Positions 2,401-16,008 of a stretch of DNA of 20,000 nt are shown piece by piece. The stretch is from an uncultured virus (IMG/VR IMGVR_UViG_3300047548_000593) (Duplodnaviria; Heunggongvirae; Uroviricota; Caudoviricetes), in the IMG/VR virus record IMGVR_UViG_3300047548_000593. One strand, written 5' to 3'. The notes under the pieces are model-generated. The model made no database searches, was not told the DNA's origin, and was given only the letters and a program-made list of their open reading frames with translations. Numbering within the stretch: position 1 is the first letter of the stretch; each line of letters begins with the position of its first letter. A program made the position numbers and the translations under genes.

Positions 2401-4167
2401 TTGGCTTTCTTTATTAGACACGAAAATTGCGAACATTGTGGGAGTAGTGACGCTAAGGCTGTCTATTCAGACGACAGTTGGCATTGCTTCTCTTGCAAGA
2501 AGGGCAGTCTAAGTCAAGAGTACAAAGAGGCTCTTGACACAAACAAGAAAACAAAGCATAATTCAAGGGTTAAGAGTTCATTTGGAAAGGATCAAAAAGA
2601 TATGGAAATCAAGCCTAGCGCTAAACCTGCTCTGACTCAAGAAGAGATCGAAGAGATTAAAGAGGAAACATCGACAAAGACCAAAGGCTTTCGTTCAATC
2701 GAAGACTATGTGACTTCATACTTCGGTGTTCGTCATGCCTACGATCAGGAAACTGGTGACGTTATCGAGCAGTACTATCCCTGTACTCAGGATGGTCAAC
2801 TAGTGGGTTTCAAGGTTCGTGAAGTACCTAAGAACTTCTATTCTCGTGGTCGTACTGGAGCAGATTGTGAGCTGTTCATGCAGTTTCGTTTCAATCGTGG
2901 AGGCAAGTACATTCTGATTACAGAAGGTGAAGTTGATGCCTTGTCTGCATTTCAGATGCTCAAGGAATACAATAGCGGTCGAGGCTCAGATTATGAAACC
3001 GCTGTAGTTAGCCCTACAACCGGTGCTAATTCGCACAAGCAGATCGCGGCTCAGTACAAATTCTTTGATACATTCGATCAGATCATCTTGTCTTACGACA
3101 ACGATAAAGCTGGTCAGGCAGCTATTGAAGAAGTAGTCAAAGTCCTACCAAAGGGCAAGGTAAAGATCATGCAGATGCGTTACAAAGACGCTAATGAATA
3201 TCTGACCAACAACAAGTCTTCAGAGTTCATTCGTGACTTCTATGGCGCAAAGCGCTACACTCCTGTAGGTGTTGTAGGTTCAGGTGATTTGTATTCAAAG
3301 ATTCTGGAGCAAGCTGTTGTACCAAAGGTGCCATTCCCACCATTCATGAAGAAACTAAATGAAATGCTGGTAGGTGGTTTACCTCTTGGGCACATTGTCA
3401 ATATTGCCGCAGGTACTGGGCTAGGCAAGACTAGCTTCGTTAATGAATTGATCTATTTCTGGATCTTTCATTCACCACACAAGATTGGCATTGTATCGAT
3501 GGAGCTTGATTCAGGTCAGTATGGCGAAACAATCTTGGGTCGTCACCTGAGTCGCAAGCTATCTCTGATTCAAGATGATAAGCTCAAGAAGAATTATATT
3601 GAGTCAGATCAAGTAAGACAAAAAGCACAGGAGCTATTCTATAATGAAGACGGTCAGCATCGATTCTACCTTCTGGACAATCGTGACGGTAGTGTCGAAG
3701 AGATTCAGGACACAATTGAAGAACTGGTTGTATCTTGTGGTTGCCGCATCGTTGTGCTTGATCCTCTACAGGATATTCTTGACGGTCTGACAATTGACGA
3801 GCAAGCTGTATTTATGAAGTGGTGCAAGGGGCTTATCAAGAGTCACAATGTAACCTTGATCTTCATTAACCACATTCGTAAAGCAGCTTCTGGTGGTGCT
3901 AATTCAGCCAAAGGCGATATGTACATGGAAGAGGAAATTCAAGGTAGCTCGACAATCATCAAGTCAGCTTCTGCCAATATTCTTCTTAGCCGTAACAAGT
4001 ATGCCGAGGATGAAATTGAACGTAATACGACTAAGGTCATGCTCAGTAAGAACCGCATTTGTGGTCTTACAGGCCCAGCGGGTGAAGTCTACTATGAAAA
4101 CGAGACACACACGCTGTACGACAAAGAGTACTACTTCACTTCAGTCAACCCGCAGACGATTGACTAA
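2401..4167 (+). CDS. T7 gp4-like primase-helicase
   Basis: Zinc ribbon CEHC...HCFSC, TOPRIM EGEVD and YDND, SF4 Walker A AGTGLGKTS, SMEL, LDPL, HIRK and KNR. TTG start. Confidence 0.95.
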   Translation: MAFFIRHENCEHCGSSDAKAVYSDDSWHCFSCKKGSLSQEYKEALDTNKKTKHNSRVKSSFGKDQKDMEIKPSAKPALTQEEIEEIKEETSTKTKGFRSIEDYVTSYFGVRHAYDQETGDVIEQYYPCTQDGQLVGFKVREVPKNFYSRGRTGADCELFMQFRFNRGGKYILITEGEVDALSAFQMLKEYNSGRGSDYETAVVSPTTGANSHKQIAAQYKFFDTFDQIILSYDNDKAGQAAIEEVVKVLPKGKVKIMQMRYKDANEYLTNNKSSEFIRDFYGAKRYTPVGVVGSGDLYSKILEQAVVPKVPFPPFMKKLNEMLVGGLPLGHIVNIAAGTGLGKTSFVNELIYFWIFHSPHKIGIVSMELDSGQYGETILGRHLSRKLSLIQDDKLKKNYIESDQVRQKAQELFYNEDGQHRFYLLDNRDGSVEEIQDTIEELVVSCGCRIVVLDPLQDILDGLTIDEQAVFMKWCKGLIKSHNVTLIFINHIRKAASGGANSAKGDMYMEEEIQGSSTIIKSASANILLSRNKYAEDEIERNTTKVMLSKNRICGLTGPAGEVYYENETHTLYDKEYYFTSVNPQTID

Positions 4168-4180
4168 ATTTTTGACATAG

Positions 4181-4209
4181 TTGACAAACACCCTGAGTTG
4201 CGATATACT
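4181..4209 (+). promoter_or_regulatory. Sigma70 promoter for the DNA polymerase gene
   Basis: TTGACA (4181-4186), 17 bp spacer, TATACT (4204-4209). Confidence 0.85.
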
Positions 4210-4222
4210 CAGGGTTGTTTTC
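4186..4222 (+). terminator. Hairpin or probable terminator overlapping the polymerase promoter
   Basis: ACCCTGAGT (4190-4198) pairs with ACTCAGGGT (4207-4215) and is followed by TGTTTTC. Confidence 0.6.
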
Positions 4223-4238
4223 ATTTGAAGGGGAAGTT

Positions 4239-6536
4239 ATGCGTTTTATTGTTGACATTGAATCCACAAATCTTCTGCAAAACGGACTGGATTACACTTC
4301 AATGCCATACCGACTCAAGCCTGACTACAAGGTTTGGTGTGTAGTCTTTCGTAACATCGATACGAATGCAGTCAAGACTTTTGTGAAAGAGGATATCTCA
4401 AAGGAAGCTATCAAGCACTTCCTGAAGGATTGCACAGAGCTTATTGGTCACAACATTGTCACCTTCGATTTGCCTGTCCTGAAACTATATGATGTTCTGG
4501 ACTACGAGATTGGTTATCCCGGTCAGCCTAGCACCCTATTCGGTAAGCCAGTTACTATTACTGACACACTGATCTGGTCTAAGCTACTCAATGCTGATCG
4601 CTTTGGTGGTCATAGCCTAGACGCTTGGGGTAAGCGCCTTGGCAATTTCAAGACTCATTTTGAAGAGTGGGATCGATTCTCTCAAGAAATGCTTGACTAC
4701 TGTATTCAAGATACTAGTGTCAATAAATCAATCCTAGATCATCTTATCGAAGAGCAAGGTGGGCATGATTGGACTCGTCCTTACACTATGGAAATCAAGC
4801 TGGCTGATCTAACCCTTCGCCAAGAGCTGTTTGGTTTTCACTTTGACAAGGAACTGGCTTACAAGAATGTTGAAGAGCTGGCACAAATGATGCAGGCTAT
4901 CGCAAAGAACGTAGATCATCTTCTACCAAAGAAGAAGCTACCAAAGATTGAAGCCAGCTTCTACCAAATGCCAAAGATTCGTTTCAAGAAGAATGGCGAG
5001 CTGTCTGCTAATATGCTGAAGTTCTGCGAAAAGGTTGGAGCAACTATTTCAGAAGATCATAAGACTATTACCTTTGATGGCAAGGTCTTTCCGATCACTA
5101 CAGATGAACCTCTGAAGACTGAAACAGAAGCTACAATCGAAGACATTGATGTAGTCAAAGGCTACCTGCTATCTCTTGGCTGGATTCCTACAGAAGTCAA
5201 GGAACGAGATCTGGTCAAGAATCAAGACAAGACAGCTAAGAAATATAACGAAATTGTTGAAGCAATTGATCGCTATGTAAAGCAGACTGAGACTTCTGTT
5301 TTCAGAGAACTTCGTCTGGAGCTTCTTGAAACTAGTATGGATGCCCTGCGGGATGTCCTGCTAGACCGGATTGACAATGCAAAGCCAATCTATGTCCCAA
5401 CAACACCAAAGCTAACTGTAGGTGTTGAAAAGGAAATCTGCCCCAATCTGATTGAGCTTGGTGAAAAAGCTGAGTTTGTCAAGGATGTGGTTAGCTACTT
5501 TACCTACCGGCATCGCAAGAACGCTATCTCTGGTGGTGTTCTAGATGAAGACGGAGAGCCTGTTACAGGCTTTCTGAGCGCTGTTCGTGAAGATGGACGT
5601 ATCCCTACCCCAGCAGACACTCTAGGCGCTAATACAGGCCGCTATCGACACAAGGTTGTGTGTAACATTCCTCGTGTGACTTCGCTGTATGGTGAACAGA
5701 TGCGAAACCTGTTTGGCTCTGGCAAAGGCTTGTGGCAACTGGGCTATGATTTTGCTTCGCTTGAAGCTCGTATCATGGGGCACTACGTTATCCCTTACAA
5801 AGATGGTGCGAATCTAGCCAATGCGCTTGTTGCAGAAAAGCCAAACGATATTCATAGCATCAATGCTCGTAAGCTAGGTATTGATCGCAGTGCAGCAAAG
5901 TCGTTCAGCTATGCAGCTATTTATGGAGCGCAGCCAAAGAAGCTGTCAAAGATGCTGGGGATTACTGAAGCAGAAGGTCGGCGCTTGTTCAATGAATACT
6001 GGGAAGCTGTACCTGCACTCAAAGAGCTTAAGAGCAAGGTCGAGAAGACATGGGAAGCCAGCGGCAAGAAGTACATTCCGGGTCTAGATGGACGCCGGTT
6101 GTCTACTCGTAGTAAGCATAGTCTTATTAACGTTCTGTTTCAGTCTGGTGGTGCTATCTCTGCTAAGTGGTCTGCTGTTCGGTTAGCTCAAGCAATGGAA
6201 GAGAATGGCATCCTTGGTGACCCATTCAAGGATACAAAGCAAGACGCTAAGGTCTGGTGGTTGATTCATATGCACGATGAGCAACAGATGGCTGTACATC
6301 CTTCACTGCTATCGGTTAAGACGTTTGCATCAGAAGAAGATGCAAAGGCTTTCACTAAAGTCAACGAAGGTTGTAGTGCAGTCGGACATGGCTCAAAGGG
6401 CGCTTATGTAGGCATCAAGACTCTTCCTGTTGAGTGCATTGCAAAAGGTATCGAGCAAGCTGGCAAAGAACTAAAACTTCGTGTAGAATTAGGCTTTGAG
6501 TGGATTCCCGGTCTGAACTGGGGCCAGTGTCACTAA
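4239..6536 (+). CDS. Family A DNA polymerase with 3'-5' exonuclease
   Basis: ExoI VDIES, ExoII GHNIVTFD, ExoIII YCIQD, motif A YDFASLEAR, motif B RSAAKSFSYAAIYG, motif C MHDE. Start moved to ATG 4239 after GAAGGGG. Confidence 0.96.
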   Translation: MRFIVDIESTNLLQNGLDYTSMPYRLKPDYKVWCVVFRNIDTNAVKTFVKEDISKEAIKHFLKDCTELIGHNIVTFDLPVLKLYDVLDYEIGYPGQPSTLFGKPVTITDTLIWSKLLNADRFGGHSLDAWGKRLGNFKTHFEEWDRFSQEMLDYCIQDTSVNKSILDHLIEEQGGHDWTRPYTMEIKLADLTLRQELFGFHFDKELAYKNVEELAQMMQAIAKNVDHLLPKKKLPKIEASFYQMPKIRFKKNGELSANMLKFCEKVGATISEDHKTITFDGKVFPITTDEPLKTETEATIEDIDVVKGYLLSLGWIPTEVKERDLVKNQDKTAKKYNEIVEAIDRYVKQTETSVFRELRLELLETSMDALRDVLLDRIDNAKPIYVPTTPKLTVGVEKEICPNLIELGEKAEFVKDVVSYFTYRHRKNAISGGVLDEDGEPVTGFLSAVREDGRIPTPADTLGANTGRYRHKVVCNIPRVTSLYGEQMRNLFGSGKGLWQLGYDFASLEARIMGHYVIPYKDGANLANALVAEKPNDIHSINARKLGIDRSAAKSFSYAAIYGAQPKKLSKMLGITEAEGRRLFNEYWEAVPALKELKSKVEKTWEASGKKYIPGLDGRRLSTRSKHSLINVLFQSGGAISAKWSAVRLAQAMEENGILGDPFKDTKQDAKVWWLIHMHDEQQMAVHPSLLSVKTFASEEDAKAFTKVNEGCSAVGHGSKGAYVGIKTLPVECIAKGIEQAGKELKLRVELGFEWIPGLNWGQCH

Positions 6537-6600: not shown

Positions 6601-6677
6601 GAGACTATAGCTCAGTTGGATAGAGCAACAGCCTTCTAAGCTGTGGGTCGGGGGTTCGAATCCCTCTAGTCTCGCCA
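6601..6677 (+). tRNA. tRNA-Arg (anticodon UCU)
   Basis: Full cloverleaf: acceptor GAGACTA/TAGTCTC, D stem GCTC/GAGC, anticodon arm ACAGC-CTTCTAA-GCTGT, T loop TTCGAAT, encoded CCA. Confidence 0.97.
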
Positions 6678-11222: not shown

Positions 11223-11399
11223 ATGAAGATGAAAAAATGGGCTGAATGGTTTGTGGTAAGGCGGTTAGATTTTGTGCTATACTTTATCTGGCTTGTTATC
11301 TTACCGATATACTGGTTCTGGTATATGCCAAAAGCAATGAACGATGCAGTAGATGATCTTGAAGACTTAAAAGGAGCGATTAATGAATACCGAAAATAA
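11223..11399 (+). CDS. 58-aa Trp-rich single-pass membrane protein (not in ORF track)
   Basis: SD AAGGAG. Hand translation gives MKMKKWAEWFVVRRLDFVLYFIWLVILPIYWFWYMPKAMNDAVDDLEDLKGAINEYRK. Confidence 0.75.
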   Translation: MKMKKWAEWFVVRRLDFVLYFIWLVILPIYWFWYMPKAMNDAVDDLEDLKGAINEYRK

Positions 11400-11904
11400 C
11401 ACTTTCGAACTGTTTGCAGAAGCCTGCTATGTGTTTAACGAAGTAGCTGAAAAATCAACGAAGGTTTCCTTCAACGATATTTATCAGCAATACAAGCTGA
11501 TTGAAGAAGAACTGAAAGAGACTAAAGATGCCTTAGCTACAAACAATCCACAAGAGGTTCTTGATGGTGCAATAGATGTTCTAGTAACAACTATCGGTCT
11601 ATTGCAGAAGCTAGAAAACCTTGGAGTAAACGTCTCTCGTGGTTTGACTAAAACAGCAGTCAACAACATGACCAAGTTTGTTTACACCGAAGCTGATGCA
11701 CTTGAAACAGTAGATATGTATGACAAGCAAAAAGAAGATGTGTTTGTTACCTACAATGCAAAGCACGACTGTTTTGTAATCAAAGACAAACACGATAAAG
11801 TACGAAAGCCTTCGACATTTCTTCGAAACACTCTGGATGACTGCATTCCAGACAACCTGAAGGAAGGTTTTGAAGATTTCTCTACAATTGTAGATGAGGA
11901 TTAA
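11383..11904 (+). CDS. MazG-like / PRA-PH-like all-alpha NTP pyrophosphohydrolase
   Basis: LIEEELKE...EVLDGAID...NNMTK...KVRKP. Confidence 0.85.
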   Translation: MNTENNTFELFAEACYVFNEVAEKSTKVSFNDIYQQYKLIEEELKETKDALATNNPQEVLDGAIDVLVTTIGLLQKLENLGVNVSRGLTKTAVNNMTKFVYTEADALETVDMYDKQKEDVFVTYNAKHDCFVIKDKHDKVRKPSTFLRNTLDDCIPDNLKEGFEDFSTIVDED

Positions 11905-12477
11905 ATGCAGAAAGACTTTACACTAAACCTTTGGGATGTACGTTTGAACGATGGCAATACTTACGAAGCCATTGGAGATCCGGGAACAGGTTGTGCGGAA
12001 TGTGCTTTATGCTATAAAGAAGATCTCTGCATAAGTGCAAATATAATCACAGACCAACTCTGTAGTAAACAAAACATTGTTTGGAGGAAAAAGGAAATGT
12101 TGAAATCAGCAACTCAAGAGATGCTTGAATTTGATGTGTCAAGTTTAGTTGACAAACCAGAGGAAGTACAAGTCCCCGGTACTAAGTACGACAAGGATAA
12201 GTTGCAATACAGCCTTATCCCATCTTACGCCCTTCAAGAGGTAGCTCGTAACCTAACTATCGGTTTGAAGAAGTACAAAGAGCGAGACAACTGGAAGAAG
12301 GTTCCAGAGGCTCAACAGCGTTATCTGGATGCCCTTTACAGGCACCTAGAAGCTCATAGGAGAGGCGAACTGTATGACCCTGATAGCTCGGTGCCAGACA
12401 TGCTTCATTTAGCTGCTGTAGCCGTTAATGCAATGTTCTTGATGGAGTTCCTTCTCAACCCTGACCTAAAGGATTAA
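11905..12477 (+). CDS. dATP/dGTP diphosphohydrolase-like protein (DUF5664) with Cys-rich N-terminal extension
   Basis: GTKYDKDKLQYSLIP...GLKKY..DNWKK...YLDALYRHL...DPDS...HLAAVAVNAMFL. Confidence 0.85.
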   Translation: MQKDFTLNLWDVRLNDGNTYEAIGDPGTGCAECALCYKEDLCISANIITDQLCSKQNIVWRKKEMLKSATQEMLEFDVSSLVDKPEEVQVPGTKYDKDKLQYSLIPSYALQEVARNLTIGLKKYKERDNWKKVPEAQQRYLDALYRHLEAHRRGELYDPDSSVPDMLHLAAVAVNAMFLMEFLLNPDLKD

Positions 12478-13083: not shown

Positions 13084-14061
13084 ATGGACAATCACCTGTT
13101 GCCGGTAAACAACACAAAAGAACCAGTAGAATTTGCCGACCAGCAACTCAAGGTATTCTGGCTACCTGATGAAATCAAAGTAGAAAAGGATATTCAAGAT
13201 GTGCTAGTTAATTTCAGCGAAGCAGAAAAGCATGCTGTTATTACTACCCTCAAGCTATTCAGCCTTTATGAAACACATGCTGGCTCAGAGTACTGGGGAG
13301 GACGCTTTAAGAATATGTTTGATGCTGCTGAGTTTCATCGGATGGCTTCGGTGTTCAGTATGTTTGAACTAGCTGTTCATGCTCCGTTCTACAACAAGAT
13401 CAACCAGCTTCTGCATATCGACACACCAGAGTTCTATCTGTCTTATCTGGATAACCCTGTGCTCAAGGAGCGAATCGAGCACATTTCAGAGATTATTGAC
13501 GATAAGGATGATCTAGTATCGCTAGGTGGTTTCTCGATGGTTGAGGGTGGAATCTTGTACAGTGCATTCGCTTTCCTAAAGCACTATCAATCACAAGGCA
13601 AGAACAAGCTCATGAACGTAATCCGAGGAATCAATTTCTCTGTACGTGATGAAAATATTCATGCCAAGGGTGGTGCTTGGGCGTTTCGCTACAAGCTAAG
13701 TAAGCTAGGTAAAGGCCCAATGATCGATGCTTACAAGAAGCAACTAGAAGAAAAACTGCGGCAGACTGCAAGAAAGATCTATGAACACGAATGTCAGATC
13801 ATTGCCATGCTTTTCGAGAAGGGCAAGATCGAAGGTATCACTGCTCATCAGCTAGAGAACTTTGTTCAGTCTCGTCTTAACGAATGTCTCAAGGAATTAG
13901 GATTTGCGAAAGAGTACGATGTGAAGTATAATCCTATCTCTGAGTGGTTCTACAAGGGTATCAATGACTATACCTTCAACGACTTCTTCAGCGGCATGGG
14001 TAACCAATACCATCGAAATTGGGATCAAACAGCATTTGTATGGAAGGGCAACAATGAGTGA
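13084..14061 (+). CDS. nrdB: Class I ribonucleotide reductase beta subunit
   Basis: FWLPDEI...D, E63, E95/H99, Y103, VEGGILYSAF, RDENIH, and C-terminal DFF...Y. Confidence 0.93.
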   Translation: MDNHLLPVNNTKEPVEFADQQLKVFWLPDEIKVEKDIQDVLVNFSEAEKHAVITTLKLFSLYETHAGSEYWGGRFKNMFDAAEFHRMASVFSMFELAVHAPFYNKINQLLHIDTPEFYLSYLDNPVLKERIEHISEIIDDKDDLVSLGGFSMVEGGILYSAFAFLKHYQSQGKNKLMNVIRGINFSVRDENIHAKGGAWAFRYKLSKLGKGPMIDAYKKQLEEKLRQTARKIYEHECQIIAMLFEKGKIEGITAHQLENFVQSRLNECLKELGFAKEYDVKYNPISEWFYKGINDYTFNDFFSGMGNQYHRNWDQTAFVWKGNNE

Positions 14062-15754
14062 AAATATCTACAAGCGACTAAGCGAAGAACGCAAGGAACT
14101 ACAAGCCAAGGGACTAGTCCCTGAATGGTATACAACCGCTGGCTACCAAATGTTTAAGGAGAAGTATGAATATCAAACAGAAGGTCGCTCTGTTCGTGGA
14201 CAGTTTGAGCGAATTGCCAAGACTGCTGCAAAGCATATTTCTGATAAGTTCCCTGAAGCTGAAGATCGCTTCTTCCGTTTGCTTTGGAATGGTTGGCTAT
14301 CAGCCTCTACTCCTGTTCTAGCCAACATGGGAACCAGCCGAGGTATGCCAGTCTCTTGCTCTGGAACGGTTGCTGATGACTCTGTAGATGGCTTCTATAC
14401 CAACCTGCATGAAGTAGCTATGCTAACCAAGTATGGCTTTGGTACTGCAACAGATCTGAGTAACATTCGTCCTCGTGGGGCTAAGATCAGCGTAGGCGGT
14501 AAAGCTAGTGGTGTTATGCCAGTGATCAAAGAGCACGTAAACGCTATGCGTAATATTGCTCAAGGTACTGCTCGTAGAGGTGCTTGGGCTGCTTACCTGA
14601 ATATCGAACACGGTGACTTCCGAGAAGTAGCTGATCATATTCTAGCCGAGCCAGATGATCTGAATATCGGTTGGACTATTAAGCAGTCTTTTATTGATCG
14701 TCTAAACGCTGGTGATCAGGATGCTATCGAACGCTTCCAGAAAGCCATGAAGATTAAGATGGTTACAGGCAAGGGTTATTTCTTCTTTGTCGATAAGGCA
14801 AATGCAAAGCGCCCAGTCATGTATCGTGATCTAGGTCTGATGATCAACAACTCTCAGCTATGCTCAGAGATTATGTTGTTCAACGATGAAGATCATACTT
14901 ACACTTGTGTTCTGTCTTCAATGAATGCAGCTAAGTGGGAAGAGTGGAAAGATACTGACGCTGTATACTGGGCTACTGTCTTCCTAGACTGTGTAGCAGA
15001 AGAGTTTATCGCCAAGGCAGATGGCATTAAAGGGCTTGAGAAGGCTGTTCGGTTTACTCGTAAGGGTAGAGCACTAGGGCTTGGTCTTTGTGGCATTCAC
15101 ACGCTGTTTATGCAGAAGATGCTACCCTTTGAGAGCTTTGAAGCTCACATGCTAAGTCAAGACATTCAGGCTCATATTTGGAAGCAAGCTCAAGAAGCAA
15201 CTAAGCATATGGCTATTGCTCTAGGTGAACCTGAGTGGTGCAAAGGCTACGGTGTCCGTAATACTCACCTGATTGCTATTGCCCCTACAAAGTCAACTGC
15301 TCTGCTTATGGGCGGTGTTTCTGAAGGTATCAATCCAGATCCAGCTATGAGCTTTACCCAGATGACTGCCGCTGGTGAAGTAGACAGACTAAACCCTGTA
15401 TTGCTTGACCTAATGAAAGAAAAAGGTGTTTATACTAAGAAGCATGTTCAAGAGATTACCGACAAGCAGGGTTCTGTTCAGCACGTAGATTGGTTAACTG
15501 ATAAAGAAAAGGAAATTTTCAAGACAGCCTTCGAAATCAATCAGAAAGCTATCTTGCGACTAGCCTCTGCTCGTAGTCGATATATCGATCAATGGCAGTC
15601 ACTGAATCTGTTCTTTGCCGCTGATGAAGATCCTGCTTGGATTGCAGAGGTTCATAAGGAAGCCTTTGAAGATCCAAACATTCTAGCTTTGTATTATGTC
15701 TATACACAAGCTGGTGTGCAAGCTGCAAAAGGTGAATGTGAAGCGTGTCAATAA
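14054..15754 (+). CDS. nrdA: Class I ribonucleotide reductase alpha subunit (compact, no evident ATP cone)
   Basis: STPVLAN, PVSC, RRGA, SQLCSEI, TCVLSS, APT, LYY and terminal CEAC. Start moved to ATG 14054. Confidence 0.95.
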   Translation: MSENIYKRLSEERKELQAKGLVPEWYTTAGYQMFKEKYEYQTEGRSVRGQFERIAKTAAKHISDKFPEAEDRFFRLLWNGWLSASTPVLANMGTSRGMPVSCSGTVADDSVDGFYTNLHEVAMLTKYGFGTATDLSNIRPRGAKISVGGKASGVMPVIKEHVNAMRNIAQGTARRGAWAAYLNIEHGDFREVADHILAEPDDLNIGWTIKQSFIDRLNAGDQDAIERFQKAMKIKMVTGKGYFFFVDKANAKRPVMYRDLGLMINNSQLCSEIMLFNDEDHTYTCVLSSMNAAKWEEWKDTDAVYWATVFLDCVAEEFIAKADGIKGLEKAVRFTRKGRALGLGLCGIHTLFMQKMLPFESFEAHMLSQDIQAHIWKQAQEATKHMAIALGEPEWCKGYGVRNTHLIAIAPTKSTALLMGGVSEGINPDPAMSFTQMTAAGEVDRLNPVLLDLMKEKGVYTKKHVQEITDKQGSVQHVDWLTDKEKEIFKTAFEINQKAILRLASARSRYIDQWQSLNLFFAADEDPAWIAEVHKEAFEDPNILALYYVYTQAGVQAAKGECEACQ

Positions 15755-15765
15755 AAAGGAGAGAA

Positions 15766-16008
15766 ATGAAAAATCTAGTTGTATTTAAGGCATCTTGGTG
15801 CCAACCTTGTAAGGGTCTATCGATGGTTCTGAATAATACAGATCTCGGTATTCCAGTATCAACTATCGACATCGATGAAGATACAGAAGCTGTTCGTGAA
15901 TATTCAATCACTGGTGTTCCTACACTACTACTGATTGAAGATAATCAAGTTATTAGGCGTAAGTCTGGTGCTATGACTTCACAGCAACTAAAAGACTTTG
16001 TAGCATAA
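15766..16008 (+). CDS. Thioredoxin
   Basis: ASWCQPCK and GVPT. Start moved to ATG 15766 after AAGGAG. Confidence 0.92.
   Translation: MKNLVVFKASWCQPCKGLSMVLNNTDLGIPVSTIDIDEDTEAVREYSITGVPTLLLIEDNQVIRRKSGAMTSQQLKDFVA

Follow-up and report, generated by a model that had tools for sequence, protein, structure and literature searches.

A phage class I ribonucleotide reductase with glutamine at the position of the finger-loop asparagine

The window studied here is a stretch of 20,000 nucleotides from an uncultured virus of the Caudoviricetes (IMG/VR record IMGVR_UViG_3300047548_000593). It consists of phage DNA, with genes for an RNA ligase, a primase-helicase, a family A DNA polymerase, endonuclease VII, a lysozyme and tail-fibre-like proteins, and it harbours an operon for a class I ribonucleotide reductase (RNR) in the order nrdB, nrdA, thioredoxin (Table 1). 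In this paper we concentrate on the catalytic (alpha) subunit NrdA of this operon. The Asn of its finger loop, which lies two residues before the radical Cys and corresponds to the N437 position of E. coli, is replaced by Gln268, an exchange that keeps the side-chain amide on a longer chain. At the nucleotide level the window is similar to a deposited phage in the RNR region alone; that phage is Limnohabitans DC31, with 76%.

The open frame of nrdA extends from 13964 to 15754, and the 30 codons upstream of the ATG at 14054 (13964-14053) run into nrdB. The likely start of nrdA is this ATG, which gives an overlap of 8 nucleotides with the nrdB stop as annotated in DC31, and with the start taken there the Gln is residue 268, in agreement with the numbering of the preliminary description. 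The thioredoxin-like gene at the end of the operon also matches TIGR01068 (E-value 1.2e-15), under the cut-off of that model, and its product is probably the reductant for the CxxC tail of NrdA. A gene in the matching place after nrdA is present in DC31 (annotated as hypothetical protein), in Curvibacter phage P26059A (thiol reductase thioredoxin) and in Shewanella phage 1/40 (thioredoxin domain).

Table 1. Positions of the genes of the RNR operon and of the active-site features of NrdA in the window.
Feature	Position	Strand	Remarks
nrdB, 325 amino acids; small, radical-generating subunit of the class I RNR	13084..14061	+	Pfam PF00268, E-value 6.5e-40
nrdA, class I RNR catalytic subunit without ATP-cone, 566 amino acids	14054..15754	+	PF02867, PF00317
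Thioredoxin-like gene, W-C-Q-P-C, overlaps the nrdA stop	15745..16008	+	PF00085, E-value 2.2e-14
Cys102, modelled strand 102-106	14357..14359	+	invariant in the 20-sequence alignment
Ala132, strand betaB, G-T-A (Asn-type relatives mostly G-T-S)	14447..14449	+	weaker co-varying position
Finger-loop motif N-N-S-Q-L-C-S-E-I, codons AAC AAC TCT CAG CTA TGC TCA GAG ATT	14846..14872	+	
Gln268, codon CAG	14855-14857	+	
Cys270, thiyl-radical Cys	14861-14863	+	aligned to solved enzymes, invariant in the 20-sequence alignment
Glu272, general base	14867-14869	+	aligned to solved enzymes, invariant in the 20-sequence alignment
Tyr283, codon TAC, start of strand betaF	14900..14902	+	Phe in Asn-type relatives; position co-varying with Gln268
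Cys285	14906-14908	+	two residues after Tyr283; invariant in the 20-sequence alignment
Tyr547-Tyr548 radical-transfer dyad	15692-15697	+	invariant in the 20-sequence alignment
C-terminal C562-x-x-C565 tail	15737-15748	+	invariant in the 20-sequence alignment

In HMMER alignments Gln268 stands opposite the Asn of the S-N-L-C-x-E loop both in the class Id alpha subunits 6DQW and 6DQX and in human RRM1 (2WGH), which confirms the preliminary description of this DNA in its reading of Gln at the catalytic Asn. That description, made from the letters alone, had also claimed that the remaining catalytic residues are intact, and all of them, namely Cys102, Cys270, Glu272, Cys285, the tyrosine dyad and the two cysteines of the tail, could be identified and do not vary among the 20 aligned sequences. 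Cys285 is aligned with a Cys of human RRM1, and we take Cys102 and Cys285 to be the counterparts of the E. coli redox pair C225/C462, going by the E. coli numbering. NrdA matches PF02867 with an E-value of 2.4e-72, and the Pfam search of alpha and beta gave no match to an ATP-cone (PF03477), again as described before. Comparison of nrdA with four relatives resulted in a nonsynonymous divergence (dN) of 0.09-0.14 and a proportion of synonymous differences (pS) of 0.72-0.75, at which synonymous sites are saturated, and dN/dS does not exceed 0.06. The gene is under strong purifying selection.

The close homologues of NrdA come from a search of 5.8 billion proteins, in which the 120 listed matches share 79-97% identity with it. 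All 120 have Gln at the site: in 113 the S-Q-L-C string is intact, and in seven an intein is inserted between Leu and Cys with S-Q-L still ahead of it. Both CAG and CAA are used as Gln codons in the relatives. The preliminary description had regarded a read error as unlikely, and a sequencing or assembly error in the window can indeed be considered refuted, as the change involves two nucleotides and the Gln recurs both in deposited phage genomes and in all 120 close homologues, which stem from many samples. In one close relative (L001, 86% identity) a stop or a frameshift breaks the alpha gene (3378-5189) up into two open frames, owing perhaps to faulty sequencing or to a gene copy that is no longer intact.

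The Gln is not private to this assembly, and beyond the close homologues it is found in distant representatives and in cultured phages. Among 150 representatives of clusters at 50% identity, 121 have Asn and 15 have Gln; the others comprise 12 that could not be aligned at the site, one misaligned fragment and one with Gly at the site and Gln one position earlier. The latter protein (P0165) reads S-Q-G-L-C, another relative (P0136) reads A-Q-N-L-C, and in these two the amide may be supplied from the adjoining position. Distinct alpha subunits from viral contigs carry Gln in 58 of 176 cases, a set which was drawn partly from scans aimed at Gln sequences. The cultured phages are divided equally. 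Gln is present in six of twelve (Limnohabitans DC31, Curvibacter P26059A, Shewanella 1/40, Aeromonas LAh_9, Aeromonas 44RR2.8t and Acinetobacter MD-2021a) and Asn in the other six (Vibrio PVo5, Ceto and VPG01, Pseudomonas PA11 and PaSzW-1, and Rhodococcus NiceHouse). The genomes of DC31 and the T4-like 44RR2.8t are complete, and in each of them PF02867 is matched by one gene only, that for the Gln enzyme. Among the best 80 bacterial relatives, with one genome per species, none of the 78 readable sequences has Gln (all have Asn) and two lack the region; only about four of these 80 belong to the close family. The swap looks confined to viruses.

A tree of 102 alpha subunits (22 with Gln, 75 with Asn and five uncalled) was calculated with IQ-TREE (LG+G4). 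Inteins were removed by means of hidden Markov model match columns, the motif columns were dropped and the state was called from the upstream flank. This tree contains 11 changes between Asn and Gln, ten of which are forced by branches with a Shimodaira-Hasegawa-like approximate likelihood-ratio support (SH-aLRT) of at least 95. A topology in which the 22 Gln rows were constrained to a single clade is worse by 1,144 log-likelihood units and is rejected by the approximately unbiased test (p-AU 1e-62). QLCxE, for which the preliminary description had asked whether it defines a clade, therefore does not define one. A second tree, built only from viral sequences (171 distinct alphas from viral contigs, 57 with Gln and 114 with Asn), contains 14 such changes. 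Each exchange between Asn and Gln takes two nucleotide changes, via His or Lys, and neither of these intermediates occurs at the site among 335 sequences with a readable state. In this ATP-cone-less phage RNR family the finger-loop Asn is replaceable.

Residue 283, two positions before Cys285, is Phe in the Asn-type sequences and Tyr in most of the Gln-type sequences, and the change from Phe to Tyr accompanies the swap in 7 of 11 hand-picked sister pairs. For ten phylogenetically independent Asn/Gln pairs on starred branches, 6.9 pairs show Tyr283 together with Gln, 0.3 show the opposite and 2.8 show no difference (sign test, median p 0.016). Because column 283 had been found by scanning, all columns were scored in the same way, and among 1,773 column-by-residue tests (mean 0.06, standard deviation 1.26) Tyr283 ranks first with 6.6, followed by a score of 4.45. 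With a measure that asks only for 'not the majority residue', column 283 is not singled out (score 4.1, compared with extremes of about ±4.4). A second position is residue 132 in the G-T-S/A stretch, where Ser gives way to Ala or Gly when Gln is present. The combination of Phe283 and Ser132 is found in none of the 22 Gln rows and in 54 of the 75 Asn rows; in the viral set it is found in none of the 57 distinct Gln sequences that are readable at both sites, in comparison to 104 of 115 Asn sequences.

An exchange of DNA could produce such a pattern as well. A homing intein that inserts between Leu269 and Cys270 might co-convert the flanking codons and so give rise both to the patchy occurrence of Gln and to its link with Tyr283, as residue 268 lies two residues upstream of the insertion site and residue 283 thirteen downstream. 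Inteins at exactly this site are indeed common, being present in 59 of the 207 family sequences examined, in seven of the 120 close homologues and in phage P26059A, and a co-conversion would also explain the two-nucleotide step without His or Lys among the 335 sequences. In three lineages (L009, P0262 and P0123) the own Asn sister is no closer in the flanks than another Gln lineage, and for these three co-conversion is a possibility. As a general explanation we regard it as unlikely, because the intein is not enriched among the Gln sequences (6 of 20, compared with 53 of 187 of the Asn sequences), and because in seven of ten Gln lineages no other Gln lineage comes closer in the 43 flanking columns than the own Asn sister. 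In addition, the sequence between the two sites goes with the local lineage (L018 and P0162 are an example), and residue 132, which is 136 codons away, obeys the same exclusion rule. The close homologues with an intein are P0058, P0077, P0081, P0088, P0111, P0114 and P0122, to which the alpha of Curvibacter phage P26059A (L081) can be added as a further relative; in the close homologues the intein has about 333 amino acids with a LAGLIDADG domain and ends in T-G-Q, with Gln where Asn is usual.

The co-variation partner proposed in the preliminary description was the small (beta) subunit. Candidate metal ligands of NrdB are E63, E95/H99, E154 and E190/H193, with Tyr103 at the position of the radical site. 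The first Glu-His pair (13366-13380) is spaced E95-x-x-x-H99, that is ExxxH instead of ExxH, and in alignment with the closest solved chains, the class Id betas of F. johnsoniae (8DQ4/6CWO), a gap of one residue lies opposite the extra residue between Glu and His. The beta subunit is therefore odd in the way that had been described. We know of no solved structure with the ExxxH spacing, and a search of the Protein Data Bank (PDB) with one beta segment of 73 residues returned nothing useful. With respect to the pairing, 73 viral loci with a beta were compared: 24 have ExxxH, with an alpha of the Gln type in eight and of the Asn type in 16, 44 have ExxH, all with Asn, and in five the region is missing. 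In the 44 loci with ExxH the alpha scored lower against the window's NrdA (phmmer, at most 473.8 bits). All twelve cultured phages have ExxxH, no matter whether their alpha carries Asn or Gln. Two later scans found 41 Gln alphas with ExxxH and five with ExxH, as well as 42 further distinct Asn alphas with ExxxH and one with ExxH; the five pairings of a Gln alpha with an ExxH beta sit on contigs of 14 to 424 kb. A co-variation of QLCxE with the ExxxH beta is not supported by these numbers, and the ExxxH spacing marks a whole phage-rich beta family rather than the partners of Gln alphas. Co-variation is found instead at residue 283 of the alpha itself and more weakly at residue 132, two sites that the preliminary description does not name.

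In two structural papers (PMC4728125; PMC4493059) the finger-loop Asn and the catalytic Glu form hydrogen bonds to the 3'-OH of the substrate ribose in the enzymes of E. coli (N437, E441), yeast and T. maritima. An AlphaFold2 model of the window's NrdA has a predicted local distance difference test score (pLDDT) of 89.9 and a predicted template modelling score (pTM) of 0.91, and Foldseek aligns it to 6DQW with template modelling (TM) scores of 0.85/0.95 and an E-value of 1.3e-50. The fold is the ten-stranded alpha/beta barrel with finger loop of class I catalytic subunits. Residues 130-134 and 283-291 form barrel strands in this model, 102-106 are a strand and residue 268 is part of the finger loop; both cysteines of the redox pair, which in class I enzymes is found on strands betaA and betaF, therefore lie in modelled strands. 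Tyr283 should face the interior of the barrel beside the redox Cys, because residues 283 and 285 of the strand point the same way, and from this strand geometry Gln268, Tyr283 and residue 132 would be in contact. The residue two before the betaF Cys is a bulky aromatic in this ATP-cone-less family, Phe in the solved Id enzymes and Ala in human RRM1, and the pocket behind the Asn is therefore family-specific, which could explain why Gln is tolerated in this family.

According to the mechanism that we propose, Gln268, being longer by one methylene, would supply the amide that forms the hydrogen bond to the substrate 3'-OH alongside the catalytic Glu. The longer side chain would be fitted in by the change from Phe to Tyr at 283, by the loss of the Ser hydroxyl at 132 (Ala or Gly), or by both. 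Nothing would change in the radical chemistry, with a thiyl radical on Cys270, Glu272 as base and Cys102/Cys285 as reducing pair; Tyr547 and Tyr548 would form the relay, and the CxxC tail would be reduced again by the thioredoxin. We estimate the probability at about 65% that the locus encodes a working aerobic class I RNR of the phage, composed of NrdB, NrdA and a dedicated thioredoxin, in which Gln268 acts together with a rewired second shell; its activity we infer. The divergent active lineage put forward in the preliminary description likewise remains the best reading of the sequences, in view of the conserved Gln, the purifying selection and the otherwise complete operon.

A number of points weigh against this interpretation. 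The effect of Ser132 alone is not significant (p 0.6). In the viral-only tree the association of Tyr283 is weaker, with 4.3 pairs in the same and none in the opposite direction (median p 0.125), while the absence of the Phe plus Ser combination gives 4.7 pairs in the same and none in the opposite direction (p 0.06); the two tree data sets overlap in lineages, hence the second one is not an independent replication. The coupling is also not absolute. Gln occurs together with Phe283 in three of 22 rows and in the Aeromonas phages LAh_9 and 44RR2.8t, and Asn occurs together with Tyr283 in eight of 75 rows, including a relative (L002) from an unresolved group that also holds the clade of the window's NrdA. 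In E. coli, substitutions of N437, possibly including Gln, reportedly abolished turnover. Phages also have the RNR of the host at their disposal, so that full activity may be selected for less strongly than in cells. An assay of any member of the family, be it of the Asn or the Gln type, was not found in the literature, and for the RNRdb clade NrdAk, to which we return below, a 2026 preprint (PMC12918982) reports that no representative is biochemically characterised.

Another reading is that the Gln is neutral and simply tolerated, and that the associations with residues 283 and 132 are by-products of shared ancestry and multiple testing. The p-values from independent pairs are modest (0.016, and 0.06-0.125 in the second set), they derive from a scan of all columns, and there are exceptions to the coupling of Gln and Tyr283 in both directions. 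We nevertheless judge this to be quite improbable, because Tyr283 is an outlier by about five standard deviations among the 1,773 tests, because no pair of the second tree contradicts its association, and because none of the 57 distinct Gln sequences has Phe283 with Ser132, the state in which most Asn sequences are found. Where Gln is found with Phe283, as in 44RR2.8t and LAh_9, residue 132 is always Ala or Gly, and the exceptions are compatible with a Tyr that arose first and then permitted the Gln.

It is also conceivable that the Gln enzymes are not ordinary reductases, either because they act by an altered chemistry or on an altered substrate (nucleoside triphosphates for diphosphates, or a modified nucleotide), or because they are crippled or regulatory proteins. 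The Asn is treated as essential in the field (PASV preprint 10.1101/2021.01.20.427478; PMC6370689), two genes for nucleotide-pyrophosphatase-like proteins lie just upstream of the RNR operon, and no assay of the family is known (PMC12918982). Such a change of function appears improbable to us: all other residues for catalysis, radical relay and re-reduction are kept under strong purifying selection, and the Gln and Asn forms alternate among close sister lineages with the same partners, which fits poorly with a changed reaction. Moreover, DC31 and 44RR2.8t, whose genomes are complete, have no large subunit of class I or II besides the Gln enzyme. For the altered substrate handling that the preliminary description had considered, nothing was found in its favour.

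Of the two genes just upstream of the operon (11383-12477), one codes for a MazG-like pyrophosphohydrolase (PF01503), and the product of the other has the N-terminal domain of a dATP/dGTP diphosphohydrolase (PF18909, E-value 7.6e-27), which suggests that the phage reshapes the pool of deoxynucleoside triphosphates. Right behind the DNA polymerase gene, at 6601-6677, a tRNA-Arg gene with the anticodon TCT is located, and this short stretch shares 93-96% identity with tRNA genes from large enterobacterial phages that are not related to it.

If a reductase with Gln268 and a rewired second shell is indeed encoded here, one may go further and ask whether Gln268 with Tyr283, plus a smaller residue at 132, represents a distinct convergent solution of the active site which phage RNRs have reached at least ten times. 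This we propose only tentatively, and we consider it possible rather than probable. Should it be true, the 'essential' Asn of class I and II RNRs would be one of two residues with which the substrate 3'-OH can be held, and a second-shell position in betaF that went unnoticed would decide which of the two residues, Asn or Gln, works. The swap may even be adaptive in phages, for instance by another turnover rate or another tendency to self-inactivation by side reactions; such an advantage would agree with the finding that viral sequences have Gln and none of the 78 readable bacterial relatives does. The two-nucleotide step, taken repeatedly and with no intermediate seen, also makes the family well suited to the study of fitness valleys and of how phage genes get over them. 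For enzymology, natural Gln enzymes together with the partner residue 283 make the role of the Asn testable in a family where both states exist.

A practical consequence concerns surveys of viral RNRs. The PASV preprint (10.1101/2021.01.20.427478) calls N437, C439 and E441 'immutable' and discards sequences without N437, Harrison et al. 2019 (PMC6370689) took them out as probably lacking function, and the same filter is applied in the 2026 survey (PMC12918982). When N437 is used as a hard criterion for 'bona fide' RNRs, sequences of the Gln type would be lost from PASV-based virioplankton surveys as bycatch or as non-functional. Since they make up 15 of 150 distant representatives, their loss biases the counts of a clade that forms a sizeable part of the marine viral class I RNRs. 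The enzyme described here is mechanistically conservative and yet at odds with a criterion taken as absolute in the field. A description of a natural Gln at the N437 position was not found in a literature search that covered mainly the main texts of open-access papers; neither an RNR phylogeny in eLife from 2022 nor a phage RNR survey from 2013 mentions Asn or Gln.

With regard to classification, the best NCBIfam model for NrdA is TIGR02510 ('NrdE-prime'), which is matched over model positions 2-558 of 560 with 601.6 bits, 0.65 bits short of the cut-off of 602.25. The family is probably the RNRdb clade NrdAk, because the ATP-cone is missing, because the distribution is rich in phages and because it is separated from the Id-like branch. 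As far as the available portions of the two NrdAk papers (PMC5794259; PMC12918982) go, this clade has no ATP-cone and is common in viruses, and the Gln variant that characterises the window's NrdA is not mentioned in them.

Among solved enzymes, the closest PDB matches by sequence and by fold are the class Id NrdAi proteins of F. johnsoniae (6DQW; E-value 1.2e-109 with HMMER) and A. ureae (6DQX). With these NrdA shares a length of about 570 amino acids, the missing ATP-cone, the same fold and 37% identity, and in addition the finger loop S-x-L-C-S-E-I-M-L, an aromatic residue two before the betaF Cys, the tyrosine dyad and the CxxC tail. The two solved enzymes have Asn and Phe, whereas NrdA of the window has Gln268 and Tyr283; in the same way the class Id betas have ExxH and the window's NrdB has ExxxH, so that NrdB does not conform to the canonical ExxH ligand helices of the NrdBi type. 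Subclass Id is marked by a Mn2(IV/III) cofactor and the lack of a tyrosyl radical; NrdB has Tyr103 where the radical site lies. The class Ia NrdA of E. coli (N437-C439-E441, C225/C462) has the same motif positions as the window's NrdA and the same presumed radical mechanism. The difference to E. coli is the Asn in place of Gln, and at the second-shell position the Tyr of the phage enzyme contrasts with the Ala of human RRM1.

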